Source: a virus (lineage: Duplodnaviria > Caudoviricetes). From it: a stretch of 54,788 nt of DNA. Position numbers and translations under genes: made by a program. The DNA is taken from positions 1 to 54,788 of IMG/VR virus record IMGVR_UViG_3300012352_000444. One strand, written 5' to 3'. Positions 5,604 through 28,715 of the stretch are shown in pieces. Below the pieces are notes generated by a model. That model ran no database searches and was not told where the DNA came from. It saw nothing but the letters and a program-made list of their open reading frames with translations. Numbering within the stretch: the stretch's first letter is position 1; each line of letters opens with the position of its first letter.

Positions 5604-6215
5604 ATGACCATATTCATCCCGTTTGGCAAAGATTGCTCTCCAGCCTTTATATTAAAGTATGCAGAGCTTAGAAAAGAAAGCCTACCCTTTGATTGGAATC
5701 TAGCCTATGCTCAGCATATTAAGCGCTCCTTTGATGTAAAGTTTGAAGACTGGTTTACCGACATAGAATTGATTTATCATGATGGCTTAGTGCCTGATGC
5801 TGTTCAAGAAAGAACAACAAACAAATGCTCAACTATTAACCATAACTACCCTATTAGCCAAATAGATCATCCAGGCTTGGGCTTTATAGCTCACTTTGAT
5901 TTAACCGATCCGACTGTTGTAGAAACCATTAAGAAAAGAATTAAAAGATTTTATGAGATTATCAGCTCTGATGAGGATATTGTTTTTTTCTCATCTTCAT
6001 CCTATGAAGATCTTGATAAGCATGGGCTACTAAACTATTTTAATAGAGATGCCAAAACATCATTTTTATTTCTAGACTACAAGATTTCAAATAAAAAAAA
6101 TATATCTATTGATGAGGTAAATGGATATAAAATTATCAGGGCTAATGCAACACATAGCTTTGACCATGATATGTTTCACGCTATAGCTAATACTGTTAAG
6201 TCTTTGTATATTTGA
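5604..6215 (+). CDS. DUF1796 putative papain-like cysteine peptidase family protein
   Basis: N-terminal IPFGKDC..A..L...LR..SLPFDW and KRIKRF motifs. Confidence 0.7.
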   Translation: MTIFIPFGKDCSPAFILKYAELRKESLPFDWNLAYAQHIKRSFDVKFEDWFTDIELIYHDGLVPDAVQERTTNKCSTINHNYPISQIDHPGLGFIAHFDLTDPTVVETIKKRIKRFYEIISSDEDIVFFSSSSYEDLDKHGLLNYFNRDAKTSFLFLDYKISNKKNISIDEVNGYKIIRANATHSFDHDMFHAIANTVKSLYI

Positions 6216-6246
6216 CTACCCCTTCAAAATCCTATATACTGAAGGT

Positions 6247-6363
6247 ATGAAATGTTATTACGAAGGATGCCAAAAAACCCCTGAATGGCATATATTTGTA
6301 GAAGAAGGCACATTTGCCTGTGATGAACATGCACCAGGAGACTATAGTGAACCTATCAATTGA
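6247..6363 (+). CDS. 38-aa Cys/His microprotein (not in ORF track)
   Basis: TTGACT-N17-TATACT at 6212-6240, then ATG; MKCYYEGC...ACDEH. Confidence 0.55.
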   Translation: MKCYYEGCQKTPEWHIFVEEGTFACDEHAPGDYSEPIN

Positions 6364-6532
6364 AGAGTATAAGGCTAAGGCTAATAAGGATCAGGATACC
6401 TTTATCTTCCCCGCAATTCCGTGGAAGTGGACTATCTATGACGGCTCTAAGGTTAAGACATATGGCTATGCCCATACTGAGGAAGATGCCAATAGGATTG
6501 CTAGCGAAGCACTGAGGAAATATAACCGATAG
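6347..6532 (+). CDS. Hypothetical protein
   Basis: AGGAG SD before GTG. Confidence 0.6.
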   Translation: MNLSIEEYKAKANKDQDTFIFPAIPWKWTIYDGSKVKTYGYAHTEEDANRIASEALRKYNR

Positions 6533-6661
6533 TGACCGTGTAGGTCATAAGGTGGTTTAGGTGCTCTATGTCGCCGCCGAGCTGAAAAACAATATATCAA
6601 AGTTATAAAAAATAAATCATTTAATAGTGTATGATAGAATATATATAGAAAGCGGGATAAA

Positions 6662-7276
6662 ATGATTAATGCAAACCATAAAGATATTCTTGATAGTTTT
6701 GAAAAAACAGAGCAATGGAAACACTTTAGTTTTATTTTTAACACACATTTTAAAAACAAAGAAAATCTACACATGCTTCAAATAGGTGCTCATGCAGGCA
6801 AAGCATCAAAATGGATACTTAATAATATTAGCAGCACATCAAAGCTTGTAGATGTTGATCCATGGACAGGATCATTAGCATCAGATGGACACCTAGACAA
6901 TCATGATCCAACTGTACCCTGGGAAAAATATTTTGATAAAGCGGTATCTGGGTTCAATAATTCAATAAAATTTAAAGGAACTTCGAAAGAATATTTTGAT
7001 TCAATATCAAATGAAAAAGAAATTTTTGATTTTATATATATAGATGGCAGCCATAAATATGATGATGTTTATGCAGATGCAGTTAGCTCATATAAACATT
7101 TAAAGAGTGGTGGGATTATAGCTTTTGATGATTACCTATGGGAAATAGATAAAGATCCCAGTTTGATACCACACTATGCCATTAATAAATTTTTAAAAGA
7201 GTATCAGCATGTAGTATTAATAAATGAAAATAGCAATTTAAGCAACTGGCCACAATTTTGGATTTTAAAATCTTAA
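6662..7276 (+). CDS. Class I SAM-dependent methyltransferase (Methyltransf_24-like)
   Basis: LQIGAHAG, VDPW, FDFIYIDGSH..V..D, GGIIAFDDY. Confidence 0.85.
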   Translation: MINANHKDILDSFEKTEQWKHFSFIFNTHFKNKENLHMLQIGAHAGKASKWILNNISSTSKLVDVDPWTGSLASDGHLDNHDPTVPWEKYFDKAVSGFNNSIKFKGTSKEYFDSISNEKEIFDFIYIDGSHKYDDVYADAVSSYKHLKSGGIIAFDDYLWEIDKDPSLIPHYAINKFLKEYQHVVLINENSNLSNWPQFWILKS

Positions 7277-7292
7277 AGGATTTAATATACCT

Positions 7293-8006
7293 ATGAGGTC
7301 TTTTTTCTCAAAACAAACAATTAGGCTTGACTCAAGCAAAAAAGTTGCTGTTGTTATTCCATGGAGAGAAACAGAAAGCAGAATTCTTGGATTTAATAAT
7401 ATAATTAAATATTATGATTCGGTCTTAGATAGTCCAACTATATTTACTACTGATTCTAAATCAGAGATTTTTAATCTTGCTGCAAGCAGAAACCTTGGAA
7501 TGAAACAGGCTTTTGATCAAGGATTTGAGGCAGTGGTTTTATCTGATGCAGATATTTTTGTATCCGCAGATGTTCTTATTGAATCTATTAATCATTCGTT
7601 AGAACATGGTGTTATAGTTAATCCATATAATTTACTTATTGACCTTACAAAAATAGGGACAGAAATGTTTTTCAACAAAGAGAAAAAATGTCTACTTAAT
7701 TATTCCTGGAAAATTGATGCTCCTACATTTGTTGATGGCAATATTTCTAGCTTAGTTCCATGTGCAGGAATAAACATAGTTCCAAAATCAGTATGGGATG
7801 CAATAGGTGGATTTGATGAGAATTTTGTTGGGTGGGGGTATGAGGATATGGCCTATCTGACTTCATATATTAAGCATTTTAACAATATATATAGATTTGA
7901 AGAAGGAGTAGCAATTTCATTATTTCATGAAAAAGAATGGAAGATGAAATCAAAAGATAATGAGAACTATTTTAAAGAGAAATATGCAAAACAAACATTA
8001 ACTTGA
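7293..8006 (+). CDS. Glycosyltransferase, GT2/GT7-like
   Basis: VVIPWR, FNLAASRNLG, DAD, IGGFDENFVGWGYED. Confidence 0.85.
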   Translation: MRSFFSKQTIRLDSSKKVAVVIPWRETESRILGFNNIIKYYDSVLDSPTIFTTDSKSEIFNLAASRNLGMKQAFDQGFEAVVLSDADIFVSADVLIESINHSLEHGVIVNPYNLLIDLTKIGTEMFFNKEKKCLLNYSWKIDAPTFVDGNISSLVPCAGINIVPKSVWDAIGGFDENFVGWGYEDMAYLTSYIKHFNNIYRFEEGVAISLFHEKEWKMKSKDNENYFKEKYAKQTLT

Positions 8007-8031
8007 CTTATACAAGGTATATTGATATACT
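8003..8031 (+). promoter_or_regulatory. sigma70-type promoter
   Basis: TTGACT-N17-TATACT. Confidence 0.7.
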
Positions 8032-8068
8032 TGATACATAAACTTATAAGGGCAGTTAGGGGAATGCA

Positions 8069-8146
8069 ATGACAGATTTTGGTCAAACAGTAGCTATCTT
8101 TTTTTTGTGGATAACTCTTATGGTTCATCTTTTTGAGAAGAAGTAA
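8069..8146 (+). CDS. 25-aa hydrophobic microprotein
   Basis: AGGGG SD; MTDFGQTVAIFFLWITLMVHLFEKK. Confidence 0.45.
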   Translation: MTDFGQTVAIFFLWITLMVHLFEKK

Positions 8147-8147
8147 T

Positions 8148-8354
8148 ATGCTTAGTTTTGAAATCCCCGATCCATTTGAGGTATTCCTAGAACATAAGTA
8201 TGCCAACTTTAAGGGTATGCGTTATGACTTCTTTGCTAGAGAGTGGACTGGTCAATGCTTAGCGTGTGGAGAAGAACTTTACTCCCCAAGTAAAAAGGAG
8301 TATACTAAGAATAGGCTTTATCATACAAGAAATGTTTGTATTGGAGGATACTGA
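8148..8354 (+). CDS. Small Zn-finger-like hypothetical protein
   Basis: CLAC...HTRNVC. Confidence 0.65.
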   Translation: MLSFEIPDPFEVFLEHKYANFKGMRYDFFAREWTGQCLACGEELYSPSKKEYTKNRLYHTRNVCIGGY

Positions 8355-8983
8355 TGACACATGATGAACTAATTGATCCATTTTTATATAATATTTTTTT
8401 TAAAGAATATAAGGTTAATGAAAATGACATAGCAATATCTTTGGGGGCAGGAGAAGGAGAAGAGACAGAATACCTTTCAGAAATGGTTGGTCCCAATGGA
8501 AAGGTTTTTGCTATCGAAGCAGATCCAAGAGTTTTTGCAGCACTACAAAGCAATATATCAAAATATAAATATAAAAATGTTATAGCTTTAAATATTGCAA
8601 TCGCTGATTTTGAAGGATCAATTAATATTGTAGACCTCGGTGGTAATGGTGTAGAGAATTATGTGCAGAAAGAAGAAGCAGAGAATTCTGTTCCTGTAGC
8701 ATGTACAACAATGGACAAGTTTGTGTTAGATTATGAGCTTGAAAAGATTGATTACATAAAAGTAAATATTGAAGGGGCTGAAGTAGAATTTCTAAAAGGC
8801 TTTCAAGAAAAGTATCAAATTGTAAAGAATTGGTGCATCTCTTGTCATGACTTTACAGGTGTTGAAAATCAAAAGACATTTGCTTTTGTTACTAACTACT
8901 TTAAAGAAAGAAATGTTGAGTTTAGAACTTATGAAGACTTACCATTCCCAATCGGTGAGTTTTATGTATTTATATCTAATTAG
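8354..8983 (+). CDS. FkbM-family methyltransferase
   Basis: SLGAGEG, VFAIEADP, IDYIKVNIEGAE. Confidence 0.85.
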   Translation: MTHDELIDPFLYNIFFKEYKVNENDIAISLGAGEGEETEYLSEMVGPNGKVFAIEADPRVFAALQSNISKYKYKNVIALNIAIADFEGSINIVDLGGNGVENYVQKEEAENSVPVACTTMDKFVLDYELEKIDYIKVNIEGAEVEFLKGFQEKYQIVKNWCISCHDFTGVENQKTFAFVTNYFKERNVEFRTYEDLPFPIGEFYVFISN

Positions 8984-13798: not shown

Positions 13799-14482
13799 TT
13801 AAAACTTTTCATAATTGGTTTTGTCTGGAAAAAGACTATTTAAATAATCTTTAACCTTATCAAATGATCCATCTTCAGTAGAGATTATCCCTACTCCATT
13901 ATTAATAGATGAGCTATGCTCTAGCATATTTTTGGTTGAATATATCTTTACATCTTTAATGTCTATCCCACCAATACCATGCATATTTCCGTACAATGAT
14001 CGGGGAGCTAAAGAAATATTTATAAAACTATCTATCTTAGTCTTATCAATAACAATAGGTGTATGAATATCATAGTCTAATGGATCACTTATCTTAAGCT
14101 TTATTAGTTTCTTATATGCATGTAGAAGTATTCTTGTGTACTTATTATGGTTATTAATAGCAGTATATCTATCTATCTTATCAATCAATCTACCGCCATG
14201 AAAAATAGGCATATCTCCAATAGGCTTAGTAATGAAGAAGTCGTCGTTCATTAATACAAACTCGTTTGATATTGCTCCAAGCTGTGAGATGACCTTATAG
14301 CAATTTTGTATATTTTCAAATTTATTTCCGATATCTTCTACCTCTACATAGTTGCCACGGTACCAATCTGGAATGCCCCCTATAACCCATATGGAGTCGT
14401 ATGAGCAGTTTTTAACTACTGATCGTATAGAGTATCTAAGTTCCTCATTATCCCCTGCCCTACAGATATAAACATAGTCCAT
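13799..14482 (-). CDS. Stealth-family-like sugar-phosphotransferase
   Basis: DYVY, DNEELRYSIRSV, FVLMNDDFF, HTP motifs; leaderless start at 14482. Confidence 0.7.
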   Translation of the reverse strand: MDYVYICRAGDNEELRYSIRSVVKNCSYDSIWVIGGIPDWYRGNYVEVEDIGNKFENIQNCYKVISQLGAISNEFVLMNDDFFITKPIGDMPIFHGGRLIDKIDRYTAINNHNKYTRILLHAYKKLIKLKISDPLDYDIHTPIVIDKTKIDSFINISLAPRSLYGNMHGIGGIDIKDVKIYSTKNMLEHSSSINNGVGIISTEDGSFDKVKDYLNSLFPDKTNYEKF

Positions 14483-14538
14483 ACTATAATTATATCCTAT
14501 GCTATAATTATTTAGAACATTGCAGAAAGGCAAAGATA

Positions 14539-15273
14539 ATGAAAAAAGACACAATATTTATTTATTCAATCATTAGAAATAGAGAAGAGAGTGTAAATAC
14601 ATTTTACAGACAAGTAAAAGATATAGTTAAACTATTTCCACAGTATAATTTTTTGCTTTGCCTTTATGAAAATGACTCAACAGATAGAACAAAAGAAAGA
14701 ATCTCAAAATTAGATTGGTCATTTATTGAGCATGAGATTATTATGGAAGACATTGGAACACAATATTTTGGATCAACCAACGAAGAGATGCGTGTAAAAG
14801 TCTTATCAGATGCTAGAAATAAAGCTTTGGAGGCAAAAGACTTTTTACAAAGAAGTGACTACGTATTGATGCTTGAAGCAGATATGGCCTTTACCATGCA
14901 GTCAATTGATCGAATTTTTAGATTTAAGGAAAGTATTCCTGATTTTGATGTTGTGTCTGCTAGATCAATCAATCCGAATGGTAGAGGAAAGCTTTATGAT
15001 ACATGGGGCACAAGAAGAGATAGTACTGAAAAAGTTGGACATCTTCACGGAGATTGGTCATCTTATAAATATCAAAAATATTATGCAACATCAAATGGAA
15101 TTTGTATGTATCGTTCACAACCCCTTAAAGATGGAATTAGGTATAGTCACTTTAATAAAACACTAGGACACCACGATTGCGAAATGGTTGTTATTTGTGA
15201 TGAACTACAAAGAGCTGGATATAGCAATATCTATATGGTTTACTCAGCAACAGCAGTACACGTAGGTAGATAA
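14539..15273 (+). CDS. Glycosyltransferase, CAP59/Anp1-like GT-A fold
   Basis: LYENDSTDRT, ARNKAL, EAD, YDTW. Confidence 0.7.
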   Translation: MKKDTIFIYSIIRNREESVNTFYRQVKDIVKLFPQYNFLLCLYENDSTDRTKERISKLDWSFIEHEIIMEDIGTQYFGSTNEEMRVKVLSDARNKALEAKDFLQRSDYVLMLEADMAFTMQSIDRIFRFKESIPDFDVVSARSINPNGRGKLYDTWGTRRDSTEKVGHLHGDWSSYKYQKYYATSNGICMYRSQPLKDGIRYSHFNKTLGHHDCEMVVICDELQRAGYSNIYMVYSATAVHVGR

Positions 15274-15274
15274 T

Positions 15275-15961
15275 ATGGAATATAAAAATTTAACACAGAT
15301 AATGATTACAGATGATGGAGTTTTAGTTGACGTTAAAGAAAGAACTGATCATCTTAAAACATTTACAAAAAACTTTAATTATAAACTCTGGGATAAGCAA
15401 TCAATTATTAGTTTAATGGAAGAAGACAATAATATTGACTATATTGATGCTTTTAATAAGATAAAGCCATACTCGTTTAAAGCAGATTTAGCTAGATTTT
15501 ATATAATTAATAAGTTTGGCGGATGGTACACAGATATAAATAATAGACAGCTATTAGACTTTCCAAATACAGAAAATATAGATATGATTGTTTTTAGAGA
15601 AAGACTTGTTCATACTCATACATCTTGGGCTGTCGCTACTAACTTTTTTTATTCTACTCCAAACAATATAGTATTAAGTCATGCGTTAGACACAATGATC
15701 TACAATATAAAAAATAATTTTTATGGCAAGCATGCTTTATATCCTACAGGACCTACTATGTTTGGTAGATCTATTGCCTATGCTTCTTATTACTCTGATA
15801 CTAATATACAATATGGAGATTTTGTAGAAAATAAACCAAACAAATTTTTATATAATGGAAAGTTTATTGCAGAGTCAAAACTTTTTACAGAAGGAAATGT
15901 TAATCATCCTGGAACAAATCACTATCCAAGCATGTGGCATAATAAAGATATATATAATTAG
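15275..15961 (+). CDS. GT32 (OCH1-like) glycosyltransferase
   Basis: KADLARF, GGWYTDI, TGP. Confidence 0.8.
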   Translation: MEYKNLTQIMITDDGVLVDVKERTDHLKTFTKNFNYKLWDKQSIISLMEEDNNIDYIDAFNKIKPYSFKADLARFYIINKFGGWYTDINNRQLLDFPNTENIDMIVFRERLVHTHTSWAVATNFFYSTPNNIVLSHALDTMIYNIKNNFYGKHALYPTGPTMFGRSIAYASYYSDTNIQYGDFVENKPNKFLYNGKFIAESKLFTEGNVNHPGTNHYPSMWHNKDIYN

Positions 15962-15973
15962 GAGATACGATTA

Positions 15974-16765
15974 ATGATACCTAAAATAATTTGGCAAACA
16001 TATAAAGATGATTTTAATAAAATGCCAGTTCAAGCTCAGAGATGTGCTGCTACATGGAAAAAACAAAATCGTGGATATGAATATAAATATTTTAATGATA
16101 AAGACGCTGCAACAATTATTTTAAAAGATTTTGGAAGAGAATGGCATGACCTATTCGTCAATGTTCCAATTGGAGTTGTACGTGGGGATATATTTAGATA
16201 TCTAATGATTTATAAGTACGGTGGGATTTATAGTGATATCGATACTATTTGTCAAACGCCAGCTTCAGAGTGGTTGGACGGTCCAGTTGACAGTAAAGAT
16301 AACTATGATGCCATATTTTCTGTAGAGTTATTAAAGGGAGATGCACAAAAGCCATATAGAATTTGTCAGTGGACTTTTGCTGCTGTTCCTGGACTAGATA
16401 TATTTAAAAATATAATTAATCGTGTTAAAGTACAGCTTGAAGCTATTGACTGGAGCTTAGTAACTGATGTGAATACAGCTGTTCATTTTGTAAGTGGTCC
16501 AGATATTTTTTCATTAGCAATATTGGAAGAAATGGGCTTTGCCAATGAAATTAATGGTCAACTTGTTGCAGATCAATCTGTTGATCTTTTAAATAACGTA
16601 TCAATTGTAAATAATAGTTCCTATGCAAAAGAAAATAAAATATTTATTTATGGAGATAACCACTCTGGATTATTTAATAGACGTGCTGTCAGACATATGT
16701 ATGCTGGAAGCTCTGAGTACTGGAACGATGGAGTATATGTTCAATGGAAAAAACAAACTATCTAA
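15974..16765 (+). CDS. GT32 (OCH1-like) glycosyltransferase
   Basis: MIPKIIWQT, DIFRY, GGIYSDID, CQWTFA, SGP. Confidence 0.88.
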   Translation: MIPKIIWQTYKDDFNKMPVQAQRCAATWKKQNRGYEYKYFNDKDAATIILKDFGREWHDLFVNVPIGVVRGDIFRYLMIYKYGGIYSDIDTICQTPASEWLDGPVDSKDNYDAIFSVELLKGDAQKPYRICQWTFAAVPGLDIFKNIINRVKVQLEAIDWSLVTDVNTAVHFVSGPDIFSLAILEEMGFANEINGQLVADQSVDLLNNVSIVNNSSYAKENKIFIYGDNHSGLFNRRAVRHMYAGSSEYWNDGVYVQWKKQTI

Positions 16766-18191
16766 TTATCTTTGTGTTGTAAGTTTTTTCCCACTCTACA
16801 ATATCATTTTCATCATTAAGTAATGGCTGCCCTTTGATATTAAGGCTAGTATTAAGTAGAACTGGAACTCCTGTTTTATTATAGAATTCATTAAGTAAAT
16901 TCCATAGTCCTGGGTTATCCTTCTTGCTTACCGTTTGAACTCTTGAGGTGCCATCCTCATGAACAACAGAGGGGATCAAAGATGGCTGCTTACATTTAAC
17001 TGTATACTGCATATAAGGTGAAGCAAAGTCCATATCAAACCAGTCTGATGCATATTCTTCCATAACTACTGGAGCAAAAGGTCTAAAGAGTTCTCTTTTC
17101 TTTATTCTATTGACCTTATCTTTAATGTCTGGATCTCTCGGATCAGCTAAGATACTTCTATTACCGAGTGCTCTAGGTCCAAATTCTGCTTTTCCTGTTG
17201 CAACAGCAGCTATTTTATTTTTTAATATCTCATTTAATATTTTTTTAACTGGATACTTTCCACCTAAGTCATATCCTAGATACGGAGTTTCCCAGTTAAG
17301 ATGTTGTCCATACATCAAAGCTGCTGCGCCAAGTGAGCTACCAGCATCTCCTGGGTTTGGCATGATCCAAATATCACTGAAAACATCCCATAAATATGTA
17401 TTTGCAGAAGAGTTTAGTGCACATCCTCCCATAAAAACAAGATTGTCTATACCAGTTAATGTTTTTGCCATTTGCATAAATTCTAATAGTCTAACTTTAT
17501 AAACTTCTTGAACAGCTGCTGCTATATCAAATTTATCTTGATCATCTTCTATGTCTCCCCAGTCATAAATACCTTTATGAAAATTGTACTTTTGTTTTTT
17601 TATAGACGGGAAATAACTATTTACCTTTTCAAAATATTTGTTTTTATCTCCATATGCTGCCATACCCATCATAATATACTCTTCTTGGTTAGCCATAAGG
17701 CCAAGCAAGTCAGTAAATGCTGAATAAAAAAGACCAAAACTTAGTGGATAGTTTTGCTTAAATACTAACTTTAAATTATTTTCAGATCCAACCCAAATGG
17801 TTGATGTGTTAAATTCGCCAATTGCATCCAAGACAACGACACAAGCACTCTTAAATGGGCTAGTGTAATATCCTGCAGCAGCATGAGATTCATGATGTTT
17901 AAATGACTTTTGTGGAACATTCTTTAGACTAGTTTTTAAATAATATGGCTTGTCTCCACCAAAACCACCCCGAAGCATAATTCTAGCTTTCTTTAGATAT
18001 CTGCTTTCATAATATGCAATGGCATCTGGATATCCATACTGCAAGGCATCCTCTATTAGCTTATCATTAGTAAACCAATCATTTTTTTGTTTGCTATATC
18101 TTTCAGAATGCCCTGCAAATAGTATATCCCCATCTTTAATTAAAGATACTGATGCATCGTGGGTTGTTTCATTAATTCCAAGTATTATCAT
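16758..18191 (-). CDS. Carbamoyltransferase (NodU/CmcH/TobZ family)
   Basis: HDAS, HHESHAA, DAIGE, MGMAAYG, GGCALN, EFGPRALGNRS, FRPFAP, LNTSLN. Confidence 0.95.
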   Translation of the reverse strand: MIILGINETTHDASVSLIKDGDILFAGHSERYSKQKNDWFTNDKLIEDALQYGYPDAIAYYESRYLKKARIMLRGGFGGDKPYYLKTSLKNVPQKSFKHHESHAAAGYYTSPFKSACVVVLDAIGEFNTSTIWVGSENNLKLVFKQNYPLSFGLFYSAFTDLLGLMANQEEYIMMGMAAYGDKNKYFEKVNSYFPSIKKQKYNFHKGIYDWGDIEDDQDKFDIAAAVQEVYKVRLLEFMQMAKTLTGIDNLVFMGGCALNSSANTYLWDVFSDIWIMPNPGDAGSSLGAAALMYGQHLNWETPYLGYDLGGKYPVKKILNEILKNKIAAVATGKAEFGPRALGNRSILADPRDPDIKDKVNRIKKRELFRPFAPVVMEEYASDWFDMDFASPYMQYTVKCKQPSLIPSVVHEDGTSRVQTVSKKDNPGLWNLLNEFYNKTGVPVLLNTSLNIKGQPLLNDENDIVEWEKTYNTKIIR

Positions 18192-18198
18192 TATTCTC

Positions 18199-18282
18199 CT
18201 AGTATAGAAACTTATCTTTTTTAAATAACTTTTTCTTTTTATTAGTAAAAATATAAAAAAACTTTCTAATTGCTTTTATCAT
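18199..18282 (-). CDS. 27-aa basic peptide ending DKFLY (not in ORF track)
   Basis: AAGGAG SD; MIKAIRKFFYIFTNKKKKLFKKDKFLY; fills the gap between SGNH-like and carbamoyltransferase genes. Confidence 0.7.
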   Translation of the reverse strand: MIKAIRKFFYIFTNKKKKLFKKDKFLY

Positions 18283-19111
18283 TATACTCCTTTAAAAATA
18301 TCTCTGATACACCATCTGAATACATCAGCCCTGGATGTGCATTATCTCTAGCAATATTATACAGTATATTGCCTCTTTCATTTTTATTTTTGGCCATCTT
18401 AATTATGGAACTTTGCTCTATATAAATAAAATCAAAAAATCCTAATTCATTAAATATTTTAGATGAGTCTTCATCCCAAGAAGACCAGATTAAAGATATG
18501 CCTGATTCTTTACAGTAATGTTCAAGAGATTTTATAAGTAAATATGTTGAAAAAATACTATCCTCAAAAGTCTTATACTTATGATCTTTTTGATTTTTAG
18601 AAACCACTGTAAAGTATTCATCTTCAATGTATGATAATGATCTAGAAATTTCTGGGAATAGTATGAATAAGTTTGATGGTTTTCCATATTTTTCTATATA
18701 GTTATAAACATTATTAATGATTAGCTCTATAGAGCCACCTAAAAATGATATAGACTTATATCCGTCAAAGTCTCCTTTGTTTATTTTGTTATATAATCTT
18801 CCAGACCAGTTGTCCATATATGGCAAACTTTCTCCGAATGTAAAAGAACAACCACAAAATAAAGCAGACTTTTCTGATTCTATAATAAAAAAATCTTCTG
18901 ATCTATGGCCTTCATTATTCATCTTATAAGATATAGAATCATGTTTTGGCAAGTTTTGTAATTCTTCTAGTTTGGTAAAAAAATACTCATTATGTGGCAA
19001 GAACTGTTTGGTCAAAGTTCTTTCATTAGAAAATCTTTTTTCTATATTAATGACAGGAACAGAAAAGGCTATTTCTTTTTTAAAGTGTATGGATTCTAAA
19101 ATTTTTTTCAT
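18266..19111 (-). CDS. SGNH/GDSL-like hydrolase or acyltransferase
   Basis: FCGCSFTFG (GDS-like Ser) and C-terminal RDNAHPG (DxxH). Confidence 0.65.
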   Translation of the reverse strand: MKKILESIHFKKEIAFSVPVINIEKRFSNERTLTKQFLPHNEYFFTKLEELQNLPKHDSISYKMNNEGHRSEDFFIIESEKSALFCGCSFTFGESLPYMDNWSGRLYNKINKGDFDGYKSISFLGGSIELIINNVYNYIEKYGKPSNLFILFPEISRSLSYIEDEYFTVVSKNQKDHKYKTFEDSIFSTYLLIKSLEHYCKESGISLIWSSWDEDSSKIFNELGFFDFIYIEQSSIIKMAKNKNERGNILYNIARDNAHPGLMYSDGVSEIFLKEYNDKSN

Positions 19112-19438: not shown

Positions 19439-20452
19439 CTAGTTTAATGCGTGAGGCTTTGATTCACCTACGCTTAGCGGAGATACAATGTTATACAATG
19501 CAATTTCCGCTAGTTCTGATAGTTTGTTTACTCCAGAATAAGAACATCCGCTACCTAGACCATTTTTGATCTTATCTATTACTATGGTAACAGATCCCTT
19601 AAACGGAATCTTTGTTGTTATACCCTCTTCAACAGATACTGAGCCACGCCAGTCTGTTTGGGCTGAAGCACTTGCCATACCCCTAAAGGATTTTTGTCCG
19701 TCTATGACCTGCCCAGGACTCTCTGAGGTACCTGCTAGCATAGATCCTAGCATAACCATATCTGCTCCTGCAGCAAATGATTTAACAATATCCCCAGTAG
19801 TCTTAATGCCACCATCTGCAACAATAAGTGTACTAAGATTGTTTAGCTTTTTGGCATATGAGCAGTCAATAACAGATTGCAAGGTTGGAACTCCATGACC
19901 AGACACTATCCTTGTTGTACAGGTTGCACCACCGCCGATACCAACACGTACTGCATCTGCTCCACAAATTGATAAAACTGTGTAGCCATGTGAAGTTGAA
20001 ACATTTCCAGCCATTACTTTAAGATTTGGAAATTTTAATTTTACAGATTTGACAGCATCTATGCATGCTTTTCCATGACCATTTGCAGTATCTATACAAA
20101 TCCATTTAATACCATTATCTACAATAGTTTGAATAAAAGATAAATCAATACATTCAGCAGCAGATACTGCTAAGCCAATATTATCTGGATTTTCTGTTGC
20201 ATTAATAGCTGTATAAGCATGCCACATTCTTTTATTATTAGTCATATATCTATGAATTATTCCAATACCACCTGCATTTGCAATATGAGCTGCCATTTCC
20301 CACTCGGTCACTGTATCCATTGGAGAAGATACTATAGGTAGAGCATATCCGTTCATAGATAAATCTACTTCATGTCTACTTTGAACATTAGACTGTTGTG
20401 GAACTAACAATATGTCATCAAAACATAATGCATTTTCATTAACTAAATTCAT
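19439..20452 (-). CDS. IMPDH/GMP reductase family protein (no CBS domain)
   Basis: FDDILLVP, SSPMDTVT, IDTANGH, GIGGGATCTTR, ADGG, FRGMAS. Confidence 0.92.
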   Translation of the reverse strand: MNLVNENALCFDDILLVPQQSNVQSRHEVDLSMNGYALPIVSSPMDTVTEWEMAAHIANAGGIGIIHRYMTNNKRMWHAYTAINATENPDNIGLAVSAAECIDLSFIQTIVDNGIKWICIDTANGHGKACIDAVKSVKLKFPNLKVMAGNVSTSHGYTVLSICGADAVRVGIGGGATCTTRIVSGHGVPTLQSVIDCSYAKKLNNLSTLIVADGGIKTTGDIVKSFAAGADMVMLGSMLAGTSESPGQVIDGQKSFRGMASASAQTDWRGSVSVEEGITTKIPFKGSVTIVIDKIKNGLGSGCSYSGVNKLSELAEIALYNIVSPLSVGESKPHALN

Positions 20453-26134: not shown

Positions 26135-26929
26135 TTATTGAATAAAGTTAGCAACTGACATTGCTTCATCGCCTAAGATTTTTTCTCCATACATTGCTCT
26201 ATTATCCCAGTACACATTATATCTATTTGTTTTCTTTATGAATGGATCAGCACCAGCGTTGCCTCTTGCGTGACTTTTGTGCTTGGCAAATACTGTGCCA
26301 TCTTCCCAGCAATAGACATGTCTTGGCTCGTTTGCACTTTTATAAAAGTCACCAACTAAATAATCTGTTCTGTCATTTTCTGAAAATCCATATTTTGCAA
26401 CAGACTCACCCATCAAGACAGTTGCGGTAGGAGTTAAACAATTTCTACCATAGAATTTATTTTTTACGTTTTCTACTATTTGATTTATTGCAATTTCAAG
26501 AGCTGGATGCTCAGGTTTAGATGCATAAAAAATAGCATTAATAATTGAAAATGTATTTTTTGAACTCCTAAAGTCTTCTCTAAACAAAACCATATCTTTA
26601 TCAGCATATGATTTATCTGGCATTGAAACTATCTCTGTATTAATATCAAAATACCATCCACCAAACTTGTGTACCAAACAGTATCTTGCTAAGTCTGCCT
26701 TAAATGCTCCAGGAATAATTGTAGTGTATGCATTTAAAACTTCCTTGCCAAATTCTTGCCCAATAAACTCTTCTAATTCTGCATTAGACCATATTCTATG
26801 ATTTGACTGACCAAAAATATCATTATTCTTTTTTGCAAATTTTCTTACTGTCTCAACAGCTGGTGGTAAGTAATTTGTTATATCGCTGTCATCTGTTAAA
26901 ATTAAAACTTGATTTATATTAATTGTCAT
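26135..26929 (-). CDS. GT32 glycosyltransferase (paralog of 15275-15961)
   Basis: AFKADLARY, GGWYFDIN, DMVLFRE, NKFYG. Confidence 0.8.
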   Translation of the reverse strand: MTININQVLILTDDSDITNYLPPAVETVRKFAKKNNDIFGQSNHRIWSNAELEEFIGQEFGKEVLNAYTTIIPGAFKADLARYCLVHKFGGWYFDINTEIVSMPDKSYADKDMVLFREDFRSSKNTFSIINAIFYASKPEHPALEIAINQIVENVKNKFYGRNCLTPTATVLMGESVAKYGFSENDRTDYLVGDFYKSANEPRHVYCWEDGTVFAKHKSHARGNAGADPFIKKTNRYNVYWDNRAMYGEKILGDEAMSVANFIQ

Positions 26930-27878
26930 TTAAAAGCCTTTCTTTATACCATTTAATTATATCATCTGCAACATTTTCCATCTTATACTGTGGACTCCAT
27001 CCAGTTTCTTTATTTAATAATTCATAGCTCATTACTTGTTTTTTTATCTCTAATGTATCATTACTATTAGAAATAGAATACTTTATATTATTATTATACT
27101 TTTTATTAAAAATATTAACTACATCCAAAGAAGAAAATCTTTCTCCAGAACCTATATTAAATGCATTGACAATATTTTCTTTATCAAAATAATTTAAAAC
27201 ATAGTCATAGGAAGAAATTACATCATCTATGTATATATATTCACGTATATCAGTTCCACCATTACGAACAATAAATTCTTTATTAGAAAATATATGATTC
27301 ATTAGACCAGGAACAAGCCTTTTGTAGTTTAAATCCCCTGGGCCATAAACATTACAATGCCTAATAGATATAACAGGAAGTTGATATGATTTAATATATG
27401 TTTTACATAAAATATCTGTCATAGATTTTGATGCGTCATATGGGTAATAACCATTTAGAACATGATCTTCAGTGTATTCTTCTCCCAATAGTTCTCCATA
27501 GGCTTTATCGCTTGAAGCAACAATGATTTTTTTACAGTCTTGATAAATACGCAATGACTCTAAGACATTCAGTGTTCCATTAACATTATTTAATATAGTA
27601 TGAAATGGATATTTTTCAGAATATGCTGCCTGGGTCTGTGCTGCTAGATGTATAAAAATTTCTGGCTGTGACTTTTCAACTAAATAATCAACATCTTCCT
27701 TATTTATTACATCACCAAAAATAAAATTTATTTTATCAGAAGAAAAAATCTTATTATCCAATATGTCCCTAGCTAAAATATAAACATTGGCCCCATTATC
27801 TACAAAAAATTTAACAGCGTGAGATCCGATAAAGCCTGTTGCTCCAGTAATAGCTACATTTTTATTTAAATATTTCAT
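26919..27878 (-). CDS. NDP-sugar epimerase/4,6-dehydratase (extended SDR)
   Basis: ITGATGFIG, HLAAQ, SSDKAYG, YDASK, NVYGPGD. Confidence 0.92.
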   Translation of the reverse strand: MKYLNKNVAITGATGFIGSHAVKFFVDNGANVYILARDILDNKIFSSDKINFIFGDVINKEDVDYLVEKSQPEIFIHLAAQTQAAYSEKYPFHTILNNVNGTLNVLESLRIYQDCKKIIVASSDKAYGELLGEEYTEDHVLNGYYPYDASKSMTDILCKTYIKSYQLPVISIRHCNVYGPGDLNYKRLVPGLMNHIFSNKEFIVRNGGTDIREYIYIDDVISSYDYVLNYFDKENIVNAFNIGSGERFSSLDVVNIFNKKYNNNIKYSISNSNDTLEIKKQVMSYELLNKETGWSPQYKMENVADDIIKWYKERLLNDN

Positions 27879-27914
27879 CTAATAATTATAGCAGAACAAA
27901 TGGTATAATGAATT

Positions 27915-28715
27915 ATGAATAAAAAAAATGCCATAATTATTTTAGCAACAAATAGCTATCTTCCATTAGGATTAAGACTTATATCAAAAATAAAAAAGTT
28001 TTACAAAGACATAGACAACTTAGACATTCATCTTGTTGCAGACTTTGATCTATCCAATAAAATAAAATTAGATAACATTATTATGCATAGTCGGAGCGCA
28101 AACACTTGGGATTTAAGTACTATGTTAAAACTAGATATCTGTCTAAGTATTGCAGAAAACTATGACTATGAGTATATTGGATGCCTAGATGCTGATACCA
28201 ATATATACAGATCGTTTGATGAATCTGAAATTTTTGCAGAAAGTTTTGTAATGAAGCATGTAAGCACTGGAATTAGCGCACCTAGCATTCATTATGAAGA
28301 TAATAAAAAATCTTCTGCTTATGTTCCACCATCTGAATATCAAGAAGTTTATTACCAGACTTGCTATTTTGGCGGAACAAAAAATAAAATGACAGATATG
28401 GTAAAAATGGCAATAGACCTTAGAACATTAGATTTAAATAGAAATATTATAGCAAAATGGACAGATGAAGGATATTTACAGAAATACTTTATTGCAAATC
28501 CACCCTTTATAGCATTTGAACCTAATGATCAAAACATTTTTCCATTTGTAGCAAATGATAAAGGAAGCAGTATAGATAAGATAAATACTGGGAAACACTA
28601 TAAGCCTTTTCAAGATATAACGGTAGATGAGTATAATGCTATGCTTGAAAAAATTTATCAACTACTATCCACTAATAACGATAGCTGGGATATTGTAGAA
28701 GATAAAATAGTATAA
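27915..28715 (+). CDS. GT6 (ABO/alpha-1,3-Gal(NAc) transferase-like) glycosyltransferase
   Basis: IILATNSY, DAD, YEDNKKSSAYVP, YY....FGG, IIAKWTDEGYLQKYF (cf. WHDESHLNKY). Confidence 0.8.
   Translation: MNKKNAIIILATNSYLPLGLRLISKIKKFYKDIDNLDIHLVADFDLSNKIKLDNIIMHSRSANTWDLSTMLKLDICLSIAENYDYEYIGCLDADTNIYRSFDESEIFAESFVMKHVSTGISAPSIHYEDNKKSSAYVPPSEYQEVYYQTCYFGGTKNKMTDMVKMAIDLRTLDLNRNIIAKWTDEGYLQKYFIANPPFIAFEPNDQNIFPFVANDKGSSIDKINTGKHYKPFQDITVDEYNAMLEKIYQLLSTNNDSWDIVEDKIV

Follow-up and report, generated by a model that had tools for sequence, protein, structure and literature searches.

The acyl-tyrosine shuttle has so far been shown only for the MBOAT-dependent transfer of acetyl and D-alanyl groups across membranes. 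According to one report (PMC12148441), F-I-Y corresponds to the first three positions of the FXYXXF acyl-shuttle motif, the tyrosine of which is acylated in DltX and in PatA; the short C-terminal F-x-Y element is carried on a microprotein (DltX) or fused to the loading enzyme (PatA, in which the peptide is FIYANF), and an SGNH-fold transferase belongs to both the DltX-DltB-DltD and the PatA-PatB system. We analyzed a locus that resembles these systems in a Caudoviricetes virus sequence of 54,788 nt, IMG/VR record IMGVR_UViG_3300012352_000444, which covers approximately 51% of the genome and is called the window in its full length below. In this locus, a gene for a 27-residue microprotein ending in K-F-L-Y lies between the genes of an SGNH-like protein and a carbamoyltransferase. 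A preliminary description of the DNA had proposed that the transferase loads carbamoyl onto the peptide tyrosine and that the SGNH-like protein passes it to a phage-made glycan; its premise, an F-I-Y tyrosine that carries acyl groups in the Dlt and PatA pathways, agrees with the report cited above. The reading that we favor, at a probability of about 45% and by analogy with DltX and PatA, is that the microprotein is a carrier arm, soluble in this case, that bears carbamoyl on its tyrosine.

Other described systems are close to single parts of the locus. NodU, NolO, CmcH and TobZ, together with a phage 5-hydroxymethylcytosine (5hmC) carbamoyltransferase, contain the same two Pfam domains as the window enzyme and modify a small molecule or nucleic acid directly, and the consulted part of the source describes no peptide or SGNH partner for them (PMC8670742). 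Among the sxt genes, sxtJ and sxtK are listed as "unknown", acting "in conjunction with" SxtI, in the portion of the source that was available (PMC2679770). The crocagin cluster of Chondromyces crocatus encodes the hydrolase CgnD, the carbamoyltransferase CgnI and the 2-oxoglutarate (2OG) dioxygenase CgnC, and its precursor CgnA is a 21-aa peptide composed of an 18-aa leader with six positive charges and the core I-Y-W (accessible part of PMC10070186).

Organization of the module

The three genes are tightly packed on the minus strand, and their open reading frames (ORFs) coincide exactly with those given in the preliminary description (Table 1). The AAGGAG Shine-Dalgarno sequence of the unannotated peptide and its K-F-L-Y end could be read directly from the DNA, as had been claimed. 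The end of the SGNH gene and the microprotein ORF overlap by 17 nt. The TAG stop codon of the microprotein is located inside an AGGAG that lies 4 nt 5' of the transferase ATG at 18191, and because this ribosome-binding site overlaps the stop codon, the arrangement suggests that the microprotein and the carbamoyltransferase are translationally coupled. All three products were predicted to be soluble. A Pfam scan of 62 ORFs of the window, about half of the genome, revealed no MBOAT, as the earlier proposal had held, and no 2OG oxygenase, SxtJ or thymidylate-synthase homolog.

Conservation of the peptide gene

The peptide gene is real and under purifying selection. The window peptide contains ten Lys/Arg residues versus one Asp/Glu, and when the stop-to-stop frames of 15-120 codons in the window were filtered for an end of [FYWI][ILVT]Y and at least six Lys/Arg in the last 25 residues, a single frame out of 2025 passed. 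Eighty-four related loci, 83 in addition to the window, were then screened for a short frame ending in [FYW][ILVT]Y with at most three residues after it and at least six Lys/Arg in the last 25 residues; the opposite strand of these loci gave no match, and one evident false match was obtained overall. The resulting family comprised 43 distinct peptide sequences of 25-39 residues (with one further partial entry) that end in the pattern [FYI]-[ILVT]-Y-stop. As the earlier proposal requires for homologous loci, the terminal tyrosine is conserved: both in 33 aligned peptides (Y27) and in the 43 distinct sequences it was invariant and preceded by [FY] two positions before it, and position 26 was Ile in at least 90% of the alignment. 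The ratio of nonsynonymous to synonymous polymorphism (pN/pS) was 0.119/0.426 = 0.28 for 35 distinct 28-codon versions (126 pairs), and the last three codons (Tyr, Ile and Phe) vary synonymously.

The mean net charge of the family is +9. A transmembrane (TM) helix was without support, as the Kyte-Doolittle maximum in a 19-residue window was -0.16 for the window peptide and none of the 33 members reached 1.6. The preliminary description had taken the lack of a full TM helix to suggest a soluble or membrane-peripheral version of the carrier; the lack of the helix and the soluble prediction stand, and the amphipathic membrane-peripheral helix was given up (see below).

Among GenBank phages, the two with the best homologs of the transferase both have a comparable ORF that is not annotated. 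In Ralstonia phage RsoM2USA, a 36-aa ORF ending in DPFIYK (L001:3038-3148, GenBank MG752970) lies just upstream of the transferase gene and between genes for two GCS...H proteins of 283 and 284 aa with DUF6071 matches; the MG752970 record omits this small gene and labels both flanking DUF6071 genes and the transferase "hypothetical protein". In the marine virus AG-345-D19, a 39-aa ORF ending in DPYIYEE is found directly 5' of the transferase gene. The element reads P-F-I-Y in the relatives L001 and L060, P-Y-I-Y in L002 and K-F-L-Y in the window. Radical-SAM-like genes flank the module in RsoM2USA (L001:811-2193) and in the marine virus (L002:7213-7953), with Pfam E values of 3e-4 and 6e-4 that fall under the cut-off, and a cyanophage-type locus (L003) contains a radical SAM/SPASM gene near the transferase gene and lacks the peptide.

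Association of the peptide gene with the transferase and SGNH genes

With the SGNH family defined by BLAST clustering, 52 of the 84 loci contained both an SGNH-family gene and a peptide gene, 6 an SGNH-family gene only, 9 a peptide gene only and 17 neither. A search of whole contigs accounted for many of the exceptions: of five contigs of the "peptide only" class, the three longer ones have three or four matches to the SGNH family at a distance of 15-20 kb, and one of these three has a second peptide gene beside the distant matches. Likewise, SGNH-family genes were located elsewhere on four of five "neither" contigs, and on each of these four, one such gene is directly adjacent to a peptide gene; in the fifth (33 kb, 29% complete), an SGNH-family gene was not found. 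The variant end EIIY was observed on a peptide of one "SGNH only" locus; in the exceptional loci L043, L053, L075, L159 and L175, a variant peptide was sought and not found.

Across all loci, from related uncultured phages, we found 75 distinct peptide gene contexts. Within 100 nt and on the same strand, an SGNH-family gene was present in 59 of these, a transferase gene in 18 and either of them in 71, so that short ORFs ending in F-[IL]-Y beside phage carbamoyltransferases, a search for which had been suggested in the preliminary description, do occur. In a reverse test, 79 loci were selected only by their match to the SGNH family (from the best 80 among 548 confirmed stretches, with a subset alignment as the query). 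The peptide was present in 35 of the 39 loci with a transferase gene versus 2 of the 40 without, both at contig ends; a third match among those 40 loci was spurious. Therefore, the peptide follows the transferase, and the SGNH family also occurs without either. Of five long contigs with loci of the latter kind, four are without a transferase gene (48-71% complete), and the one complete contig has it.

A different block stands 5' of the transferase gene in L037 and L039-L043 (for example, L039:258-4004), where the SGNH and peptide genes are located 10-20 kb off on the same contigs. This block encodes two paralogous proteins of approximately 250 aa (one with a weak DUF6065 match), a GlcNAc-type glycosyltransferase-like protein and two 2OG-Fe(II) oxygenases. 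Across the set of 84 related loci, 39 contain members of a 2OG-oxygenase family.

The SGNH-fold protein and its family

The 281-aa protein contains the motif residues G87-C88-S89-F90 (block I), G125 (block II) and D256-N-A-H259 (block V). In an alignment of 50 relatives, G87, S89, C200 and H259 were invariant and G125 was near-invariant; at the block III site, R157 was invariant and a conserved Asn was not evident. The AlphaFold2 model of the protein revealed an SGNH fold with a pLDDT of 86.9. Because S89 and H259 are invariant, D256-x-x-H259 is present and the model has the SGNH fold, the label of an SGNH-like protein with GCSF...DNAH, which the preliminary description had used, appears to be correct.

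Pfam, PHROG and NCBIfam gave no family match for the 281-aa protein at their reporting thresholds. A sequence search of the phage collection and a single-query search of IMG/VR likewise returned no match for it, and further single SGNH queries recovered only their own contigs. The protein can nevertheless be assigned to a large unnamed family with a distant tie to Pfam DUF6071, which comprises 14,593 cluster representatives at E <= 1e-3 and 1,023 at E <= 1e-30. The related loci contain up to four SGNH paralogs each, together with one or two peptides, which fits one donor serving several acceptor-specific transferases. One protein of 610 aa (P0011) has three stretches that match the profile of the family, which suggests tandem SGNH domains in one chain. 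We also considered a 221-aa protein encoded 5' of the peptide in L027-type loci as an SGNH relative and rejected it, as it was unrelated to the family.

In a sample of 158 proteins (the 150 top-ranking hits of the family plus eight found previously), we found a member in which the peptide is part of the enzyme. This 287-aa protein, P0061, shows 43% identity to the window SGNH protein and ends in ...NVLYPKRKLFNKKGFIY, with a basic tail (...PKRKLFNKKGFIY) fused at its C-terminus. Over their full length, the 13 C-terminal residues of P0061 can be aligned with residues 15-27 of the window peptide, and 7 of the 13 are identical (E of 0.016 for this single comparison). The tail is kept in all six members of the cluster (P0061 and P0159-P0163), which come from several sources and contigs. 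The 256 SGNH and 127 transferase ORFs of the loci included no fusion. A fusion of this type would be sensible for a carrier arm and wasteful for the precursor of a released product.

The carbamoyltransferase

The 477-aa protein was identified from its domain matches as a carbamoyltransferase of the NodU/CmcH/TobZ type, in line with the earlier assignment. It matched PF02543 (E 1e-37, 130.8 bits, cut-off 24), PF16861 (E 3.6e-55, 186.5 bits, cut-off 27) and phrog_1601, "Nol-like carbamoyltransferase" (E 5.8e-108), and there was a partial NodU match under the cut-off. Carbamoyl-adenylate chemistry is presumably common to the window enzyme and the NodU/TobZ group. Its relatives in IMG/VR showed 70-77% identity (best 80 of 575 confirmed). 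Scanning of contigs with the transferase alignment gave seven loci, of which six belong to phage contigs that had been assigned to metagenome-assembled genomes and one (L091) is truly bacterial. The window enzyme is shorter than the Bacteroidota examples, at 477 aa versus 582-631 aa.

Comparison with a Bacteroidota membrane module

The bacterial contig L091, from Bacteroidia, encodes in order a membrane SGNH-like protein, a 582-aa carbamoyltransferase, a 135-aa SxtJ-like membrane protein (a weak match, under the cut-off) and a 52-aa DUF5989 protein. The latter matched PF19451 (E 1.5e-19), contains a TM helix and ends in SPFVYTLF. DUF5989 was detected in 115 of the 301 Bacteroidota genomes sampled (approximately 38%). 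In 30 of the 31 loci examined, a carbamoyltransferase gene stood beside the DUF5989 gene, and the DUF5989 peptide ended in PF[IV]YTLF in 30 of 31 loci. When proteins from wider regions were tested, one of three SxtJ-like proteins was above the Pfam cut-off (PF19588), and all five membrane proteins of 600-670 aa had GDSL matches (three above the cut-off), four of them with TPR repeats as well. The loci L091-L122 and L224-L243 thus display a recurrent module of carbamoyltransferase (600-635 aa), DUF5989, SxtJ-like and GDSL-TPR genes.

This layout is that of sxtI-sxtJ-sxtK-sxtL, and the neighborhood of bacterial carbamoyltransferases, PFIY-type peptides and SGNH genes that the preliminary description had cited was recovered in Bacteroidota. 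DUF5989 is, we assume, the SxtK family. The module looks like an undescribed envelope O-carbamoylation pathway built in the manner of Dlt and Pat. As in the phage locus, the genes of the carbamoyltransferase and the microprotein are closely linked, and GDSL/SGNH proteins are near; the P-F-I-Y element is found in the phage relatives L001 and L060, and the window peptide has K-F-L-Y in its place. In contrast, the phage peptide lacks the TM helix and the complete PFIYTLF end of DUF5989, homology between the profiles is undetectable, and an SxtJ-like gene was not found among the window ORFs scanned. The link between the phage peptides and DUF5989 is the P-F-I-Y element and the neighbors in common.

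Proposed role of the peptide and alternative explanations

For the carrier arm, all of the chemistry, the direction in which the group travels and the acceptor are inferred, as follows. The free C-terminal F-[IL]-Y end would present the tyrosine hydroxyl to the carbamoyltransferase, which would, like TobZ, use carbamoyl phosphate and ATP to make carbamoyl-adenylate, and the tyrosine would become O-carbamoyl-tyrosine. This product would be an activated carbamate of the aryl type, and serine hydrolases are carbamoylated by aryl carbamates. Through its basic body, the peptide would stay docked on the neighboring SGNH-fold enzyme, where Ser89, with His259 and Asp256, could take the carbamoyl group and pass it to an acceptor hydroxyl or amine; in the window phage, the acceptor is probably a glycan from the surrounding glycosyltransferases. 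A single transferase could serve several SGNH paralogs with different acceptors. We favor the carrier arm because PatA and DUF5989 have the same F-I-Y as the conserved end; because a single transferase accompanies as many as four SGNH paralogs; because the SGNH family is too large, and too often without a peptide, for dedicated leader peptidases; because the conserved enzyme-tail fusion suits a swinging arm, whereas an enzyme bearing a precursor would be single-use; and because the window has glycan genes and an oxygenase was not found among its scanned ORFs. A complex prediction with the transferase, the SGNH protein and the peptide gave a score of 0.02, which counts neither way.

Compared with DltX-DltB-DltD and PatA-PatB, the phage family is likewise both split and fused, but the fusion is on the SGNH side, not on the side of the loading enzyme, where PatA has it. 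The phage peptide has no TM helix, no MBOAT was found in the 62 window ORFs, and all components are predicted to be cytoplasmic. In the phage system, an ATP-dependent carbamoyltransferase would act as the donor enzyme, with carbamoyl in place of an acyl group.

A number of observations weigh against the carrier arm. The xxF of FXYXXF is absent, as the peptide ends at the tyrosine (K-F-L-Y-stop). The relay would be cytoplasmic, and because such a system crosses no membrane, the need for a shuttle is not obvious. The window peptide and two phage relatives had no Pfam match even at E <= 10, and hhalign between DUF5989 and the phage peptides gave a probability of 2.6%, at which homology is undetectable. 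An amphipathic membrane-peripheral helix was dropped, as the mean z was 0.58 and 32% of shuffles reached the observed moment. SGNH-family genes are also found in loci that have neither the peptide nor the transferase. The relatives TobZ, NodU and the phage 5hmC carbamoyltransferase modify their acceptors directly, as far as described in the consulted part of PMC8670742. Finally, the closest solved structure to the SGNH protein in a structure comparison was CgnD, a peptide-releasing hydrolase, the set of CgnA, CgnD, CgnI and CgnC resembles the module (available part of PMC10070186), and the carrier arm and a crocagin-like product predict the same co-occurrence.

A crocagin-like peptide natural product is the main rival because CgnD is that closest structure, and we regard it as unlikely, though more probable than the two further alternatives below. 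The peptide would consist of a basic leader and a C-terminal tripeptide core, [FY]-[IL]-Y, which the transferase would tailor and the SGNH protein would cut off in the manner of CgnD; in other phages, 2OG oxygenases or glycosyltransferases would also tailor the core. Both clusters combine a very short basic peptide with an aromatic C-terminal tripeptide, an SGNH-fold hydrolase and a carbamoyltransferase (PMC10070186, as far as consulted), and the confinement of conservation to the last three peptide residues, the oxygenase family in 39 of 84 loci and the radical-SAM-like genes (under the cut-off) at the module in the two most distant phages are all in keeping with this reading. However, the phage core is F-I-Y, the acyl-shuttle motif, and not I-Y-W, and crocagin chemistry needs CgnC and the binders CgnB and CgnE, whereas no 2OG oxygenase was found among the 62 scanned ORFs of the window, which is about 51% of the genome. 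The lead of CgnD over generic SGNH esterases is just about 2 Z units, and a PDB sequence-profile search with the SGNH protein returned weak GDSL block I matches only and did not recover CgnD. Unlike dedicated leader peptidases, the SGNH proteins occur as up to four paralogs per locus and as 14,593 representatives that are often without a nearby peptide, and the conserved fusion to a tail would make each enzyme molecule single-use.

That fusion would fit a cis-acting tail equally well, as would be expected if the peptide were a non-covalent partner that carries no group, namely a small subunit or regulator of the SGNH enzyme and perhaps of the transferase. Its C-terminal tyrosine or carboxylate would plug or complete an active site, or its basic body, with a mean net charge of +9, would target an anionic surface such as a membrane, DNA or polymer. 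This explanation is consistent with the 59 of 75 peptide genes that abut an SGNH-family gene and with the differences between peptides in their N-terminal half, but it leaves unexplained the association with the transferase (35/39 versus 2/40), the 18 of 75 peptide genes that abut the transferase rather than an SGNH gene and the likeness of F-I-Y to motifs with an acylated tyrosine; we consider it improbable. We assign an equally low standing to independent enzymes, in which the transferase would directly modify the final acceptor, a sugar or 5hmC in DNA, and the SGNH proteins and peptides would perform unrelated ester chemistry (de-O-acylation or acetyl transfer) on the same polymer, so that the linkage reflects a common pathway. 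Direct action is the rule for all characterized family members, including the phage 5hmC carbamoyltransferase (consulted part of PMC8670742), in some contigs the transferase gene is 10-20 kb from the SGNH and peptide genes, and in one contig with a transferase (33 kb, 29% complete) an SGNH gene was not found. Against this stand the coupling of the peptide stop to the transferase ribosome-binding site in the window and the adjacency in 18 of 75 contexts, and a peptide without a transferase was never observed where the contig was long enough. The Bacteroidota DUF5989 peptide is equally tied to its transferase (30 of 31 loci), and a thymidylate-synthase-type hydroxymethylase was not found in the window, which weighs against the DNA variant.

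More tentatively than the carrier arm itself, and as a proposal that is rather doubtful in its full extent, we suggest a reusable ribosomal carrier of 25-35 residues that holds carbamoyl on its C-terminal tyrosine and links one ATP-dependent carbamoyltransferase to radiating SGNH transferases in the phage cytoplasm, decorating the phage's own glycans or virion glycoproteins. A membrane-anchored form of the same logic (DUF5989/SxtK, SxtJ and GDSL) would explain the SxtJ and SxtK companions of carbamoyltransferases, and a peptide carrier system may be the ancestor of the crocagin trio CgnA, CgnD and CgnI. If the tyrosine is carbamoylated, the acyl-tyrosine shuttle principle would extend to carbamoyl, to another loading enzyme and to a soluble setting. 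There would then be a testable role for sxtJ/sxtK-type genes, "unknown" since 2008-2009, and for a Pfam DUF in approximately 38% of the sampled Bacteroidota genomes, and the unnamed SGNH family of uncultured phages, very large at 14,593 cluster representatives, would gain a function; carbamoylated phage glycans would be an unexplored trait. Virus-encoded peptide natural products, which the crocagin-like reading would imply, would also be unusual. Under either of these two readings, the peptide gene has been missed by annotation, for example, in the GenBank record of the cultured phage RsoM2USA. Full-text literature searches, with subscription journals outside their coverage, listed no paper connecting a carbamoyltransferase, an SGNH enzyme and a tyrosine microprotein, and none of the papers listed mentioned DUF5989.

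Genomic context

The module is surrounded by at least eight glycan-building genes, as judged by Pfam matches of the window ORFs. The glycan genes of the window comprise GT2, GT6, three DXD glycosyltransferases, a CAP59-like transferase, a Stealth-like protein (under the cut-off), a sugar epimerase/dehydratase and two methyltransferases. The neighboring ones at 13799-16765 (Table 1) likely make the acceptor.

Table 1. Module genes, translation signals and adjacent glycan-building genes of the window.
Feature	Positions	Strand	Basis
SGNH-fold protein gene, 281 aa	18266-19111	-	ORF list
Shine-Dalgarno AAGGAG of the microprotein, 4 nt 5' of the ATG, within the 3' end of the SGNH gene	18287-18292	-	sequence
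Microprotein gene, unannotated, 27 aa, MIKAIRKFFYIFTNKKKKLFKKDKFLY, K-F-L-Y-stop	18199-18282	-	ORF list and sequence
AGGAG ribosome-binding site of the carbamoyltransferase, overlaps the microprotein TAG stop	18196-18200	-	sequence
NodU/CmcH/TobZ-type O-carbamoyltransferase (by domain matches), 477 aa (Carbam_trans_N and Carbam_trans_C)	16758-18191	-	Pfam, PHROG
Stealth-CR2-like protein, under the Pfam cut-off	13799-14554	-	Pfam
CAP59-type mannosyltransferase-like protein	14539-15273	+	Pfam
DXD glycosyltransferase	15275-15961	+	Pfam
DXD glycosyltransferase	15974-16765	+	Pfam

Further parts of a large sugar-building repertoire carried by the phage are located at 5604-8983 and 26135-28715, where we found a DUF1796 papain-like protein, Methyltransf_24, an FkbM-type methyltransferase, GT2, a DXD glycosyltransferase, an NAD-dependent epimerase/dehydratase and GT6. 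The window also contains actinophage-like genes for WhiB, a DnaE-type polymerase, RecA, Hsp20 and a CHAP endolysin. Just upstream of the module, at 19439-20452 on the minus strand, lies the gene of a 337-aa protein of the IMPDH/GMP-reductase family (PF00478, E 3.2e-85), which is probably a nucleotide-metabolism auxiliary gene.

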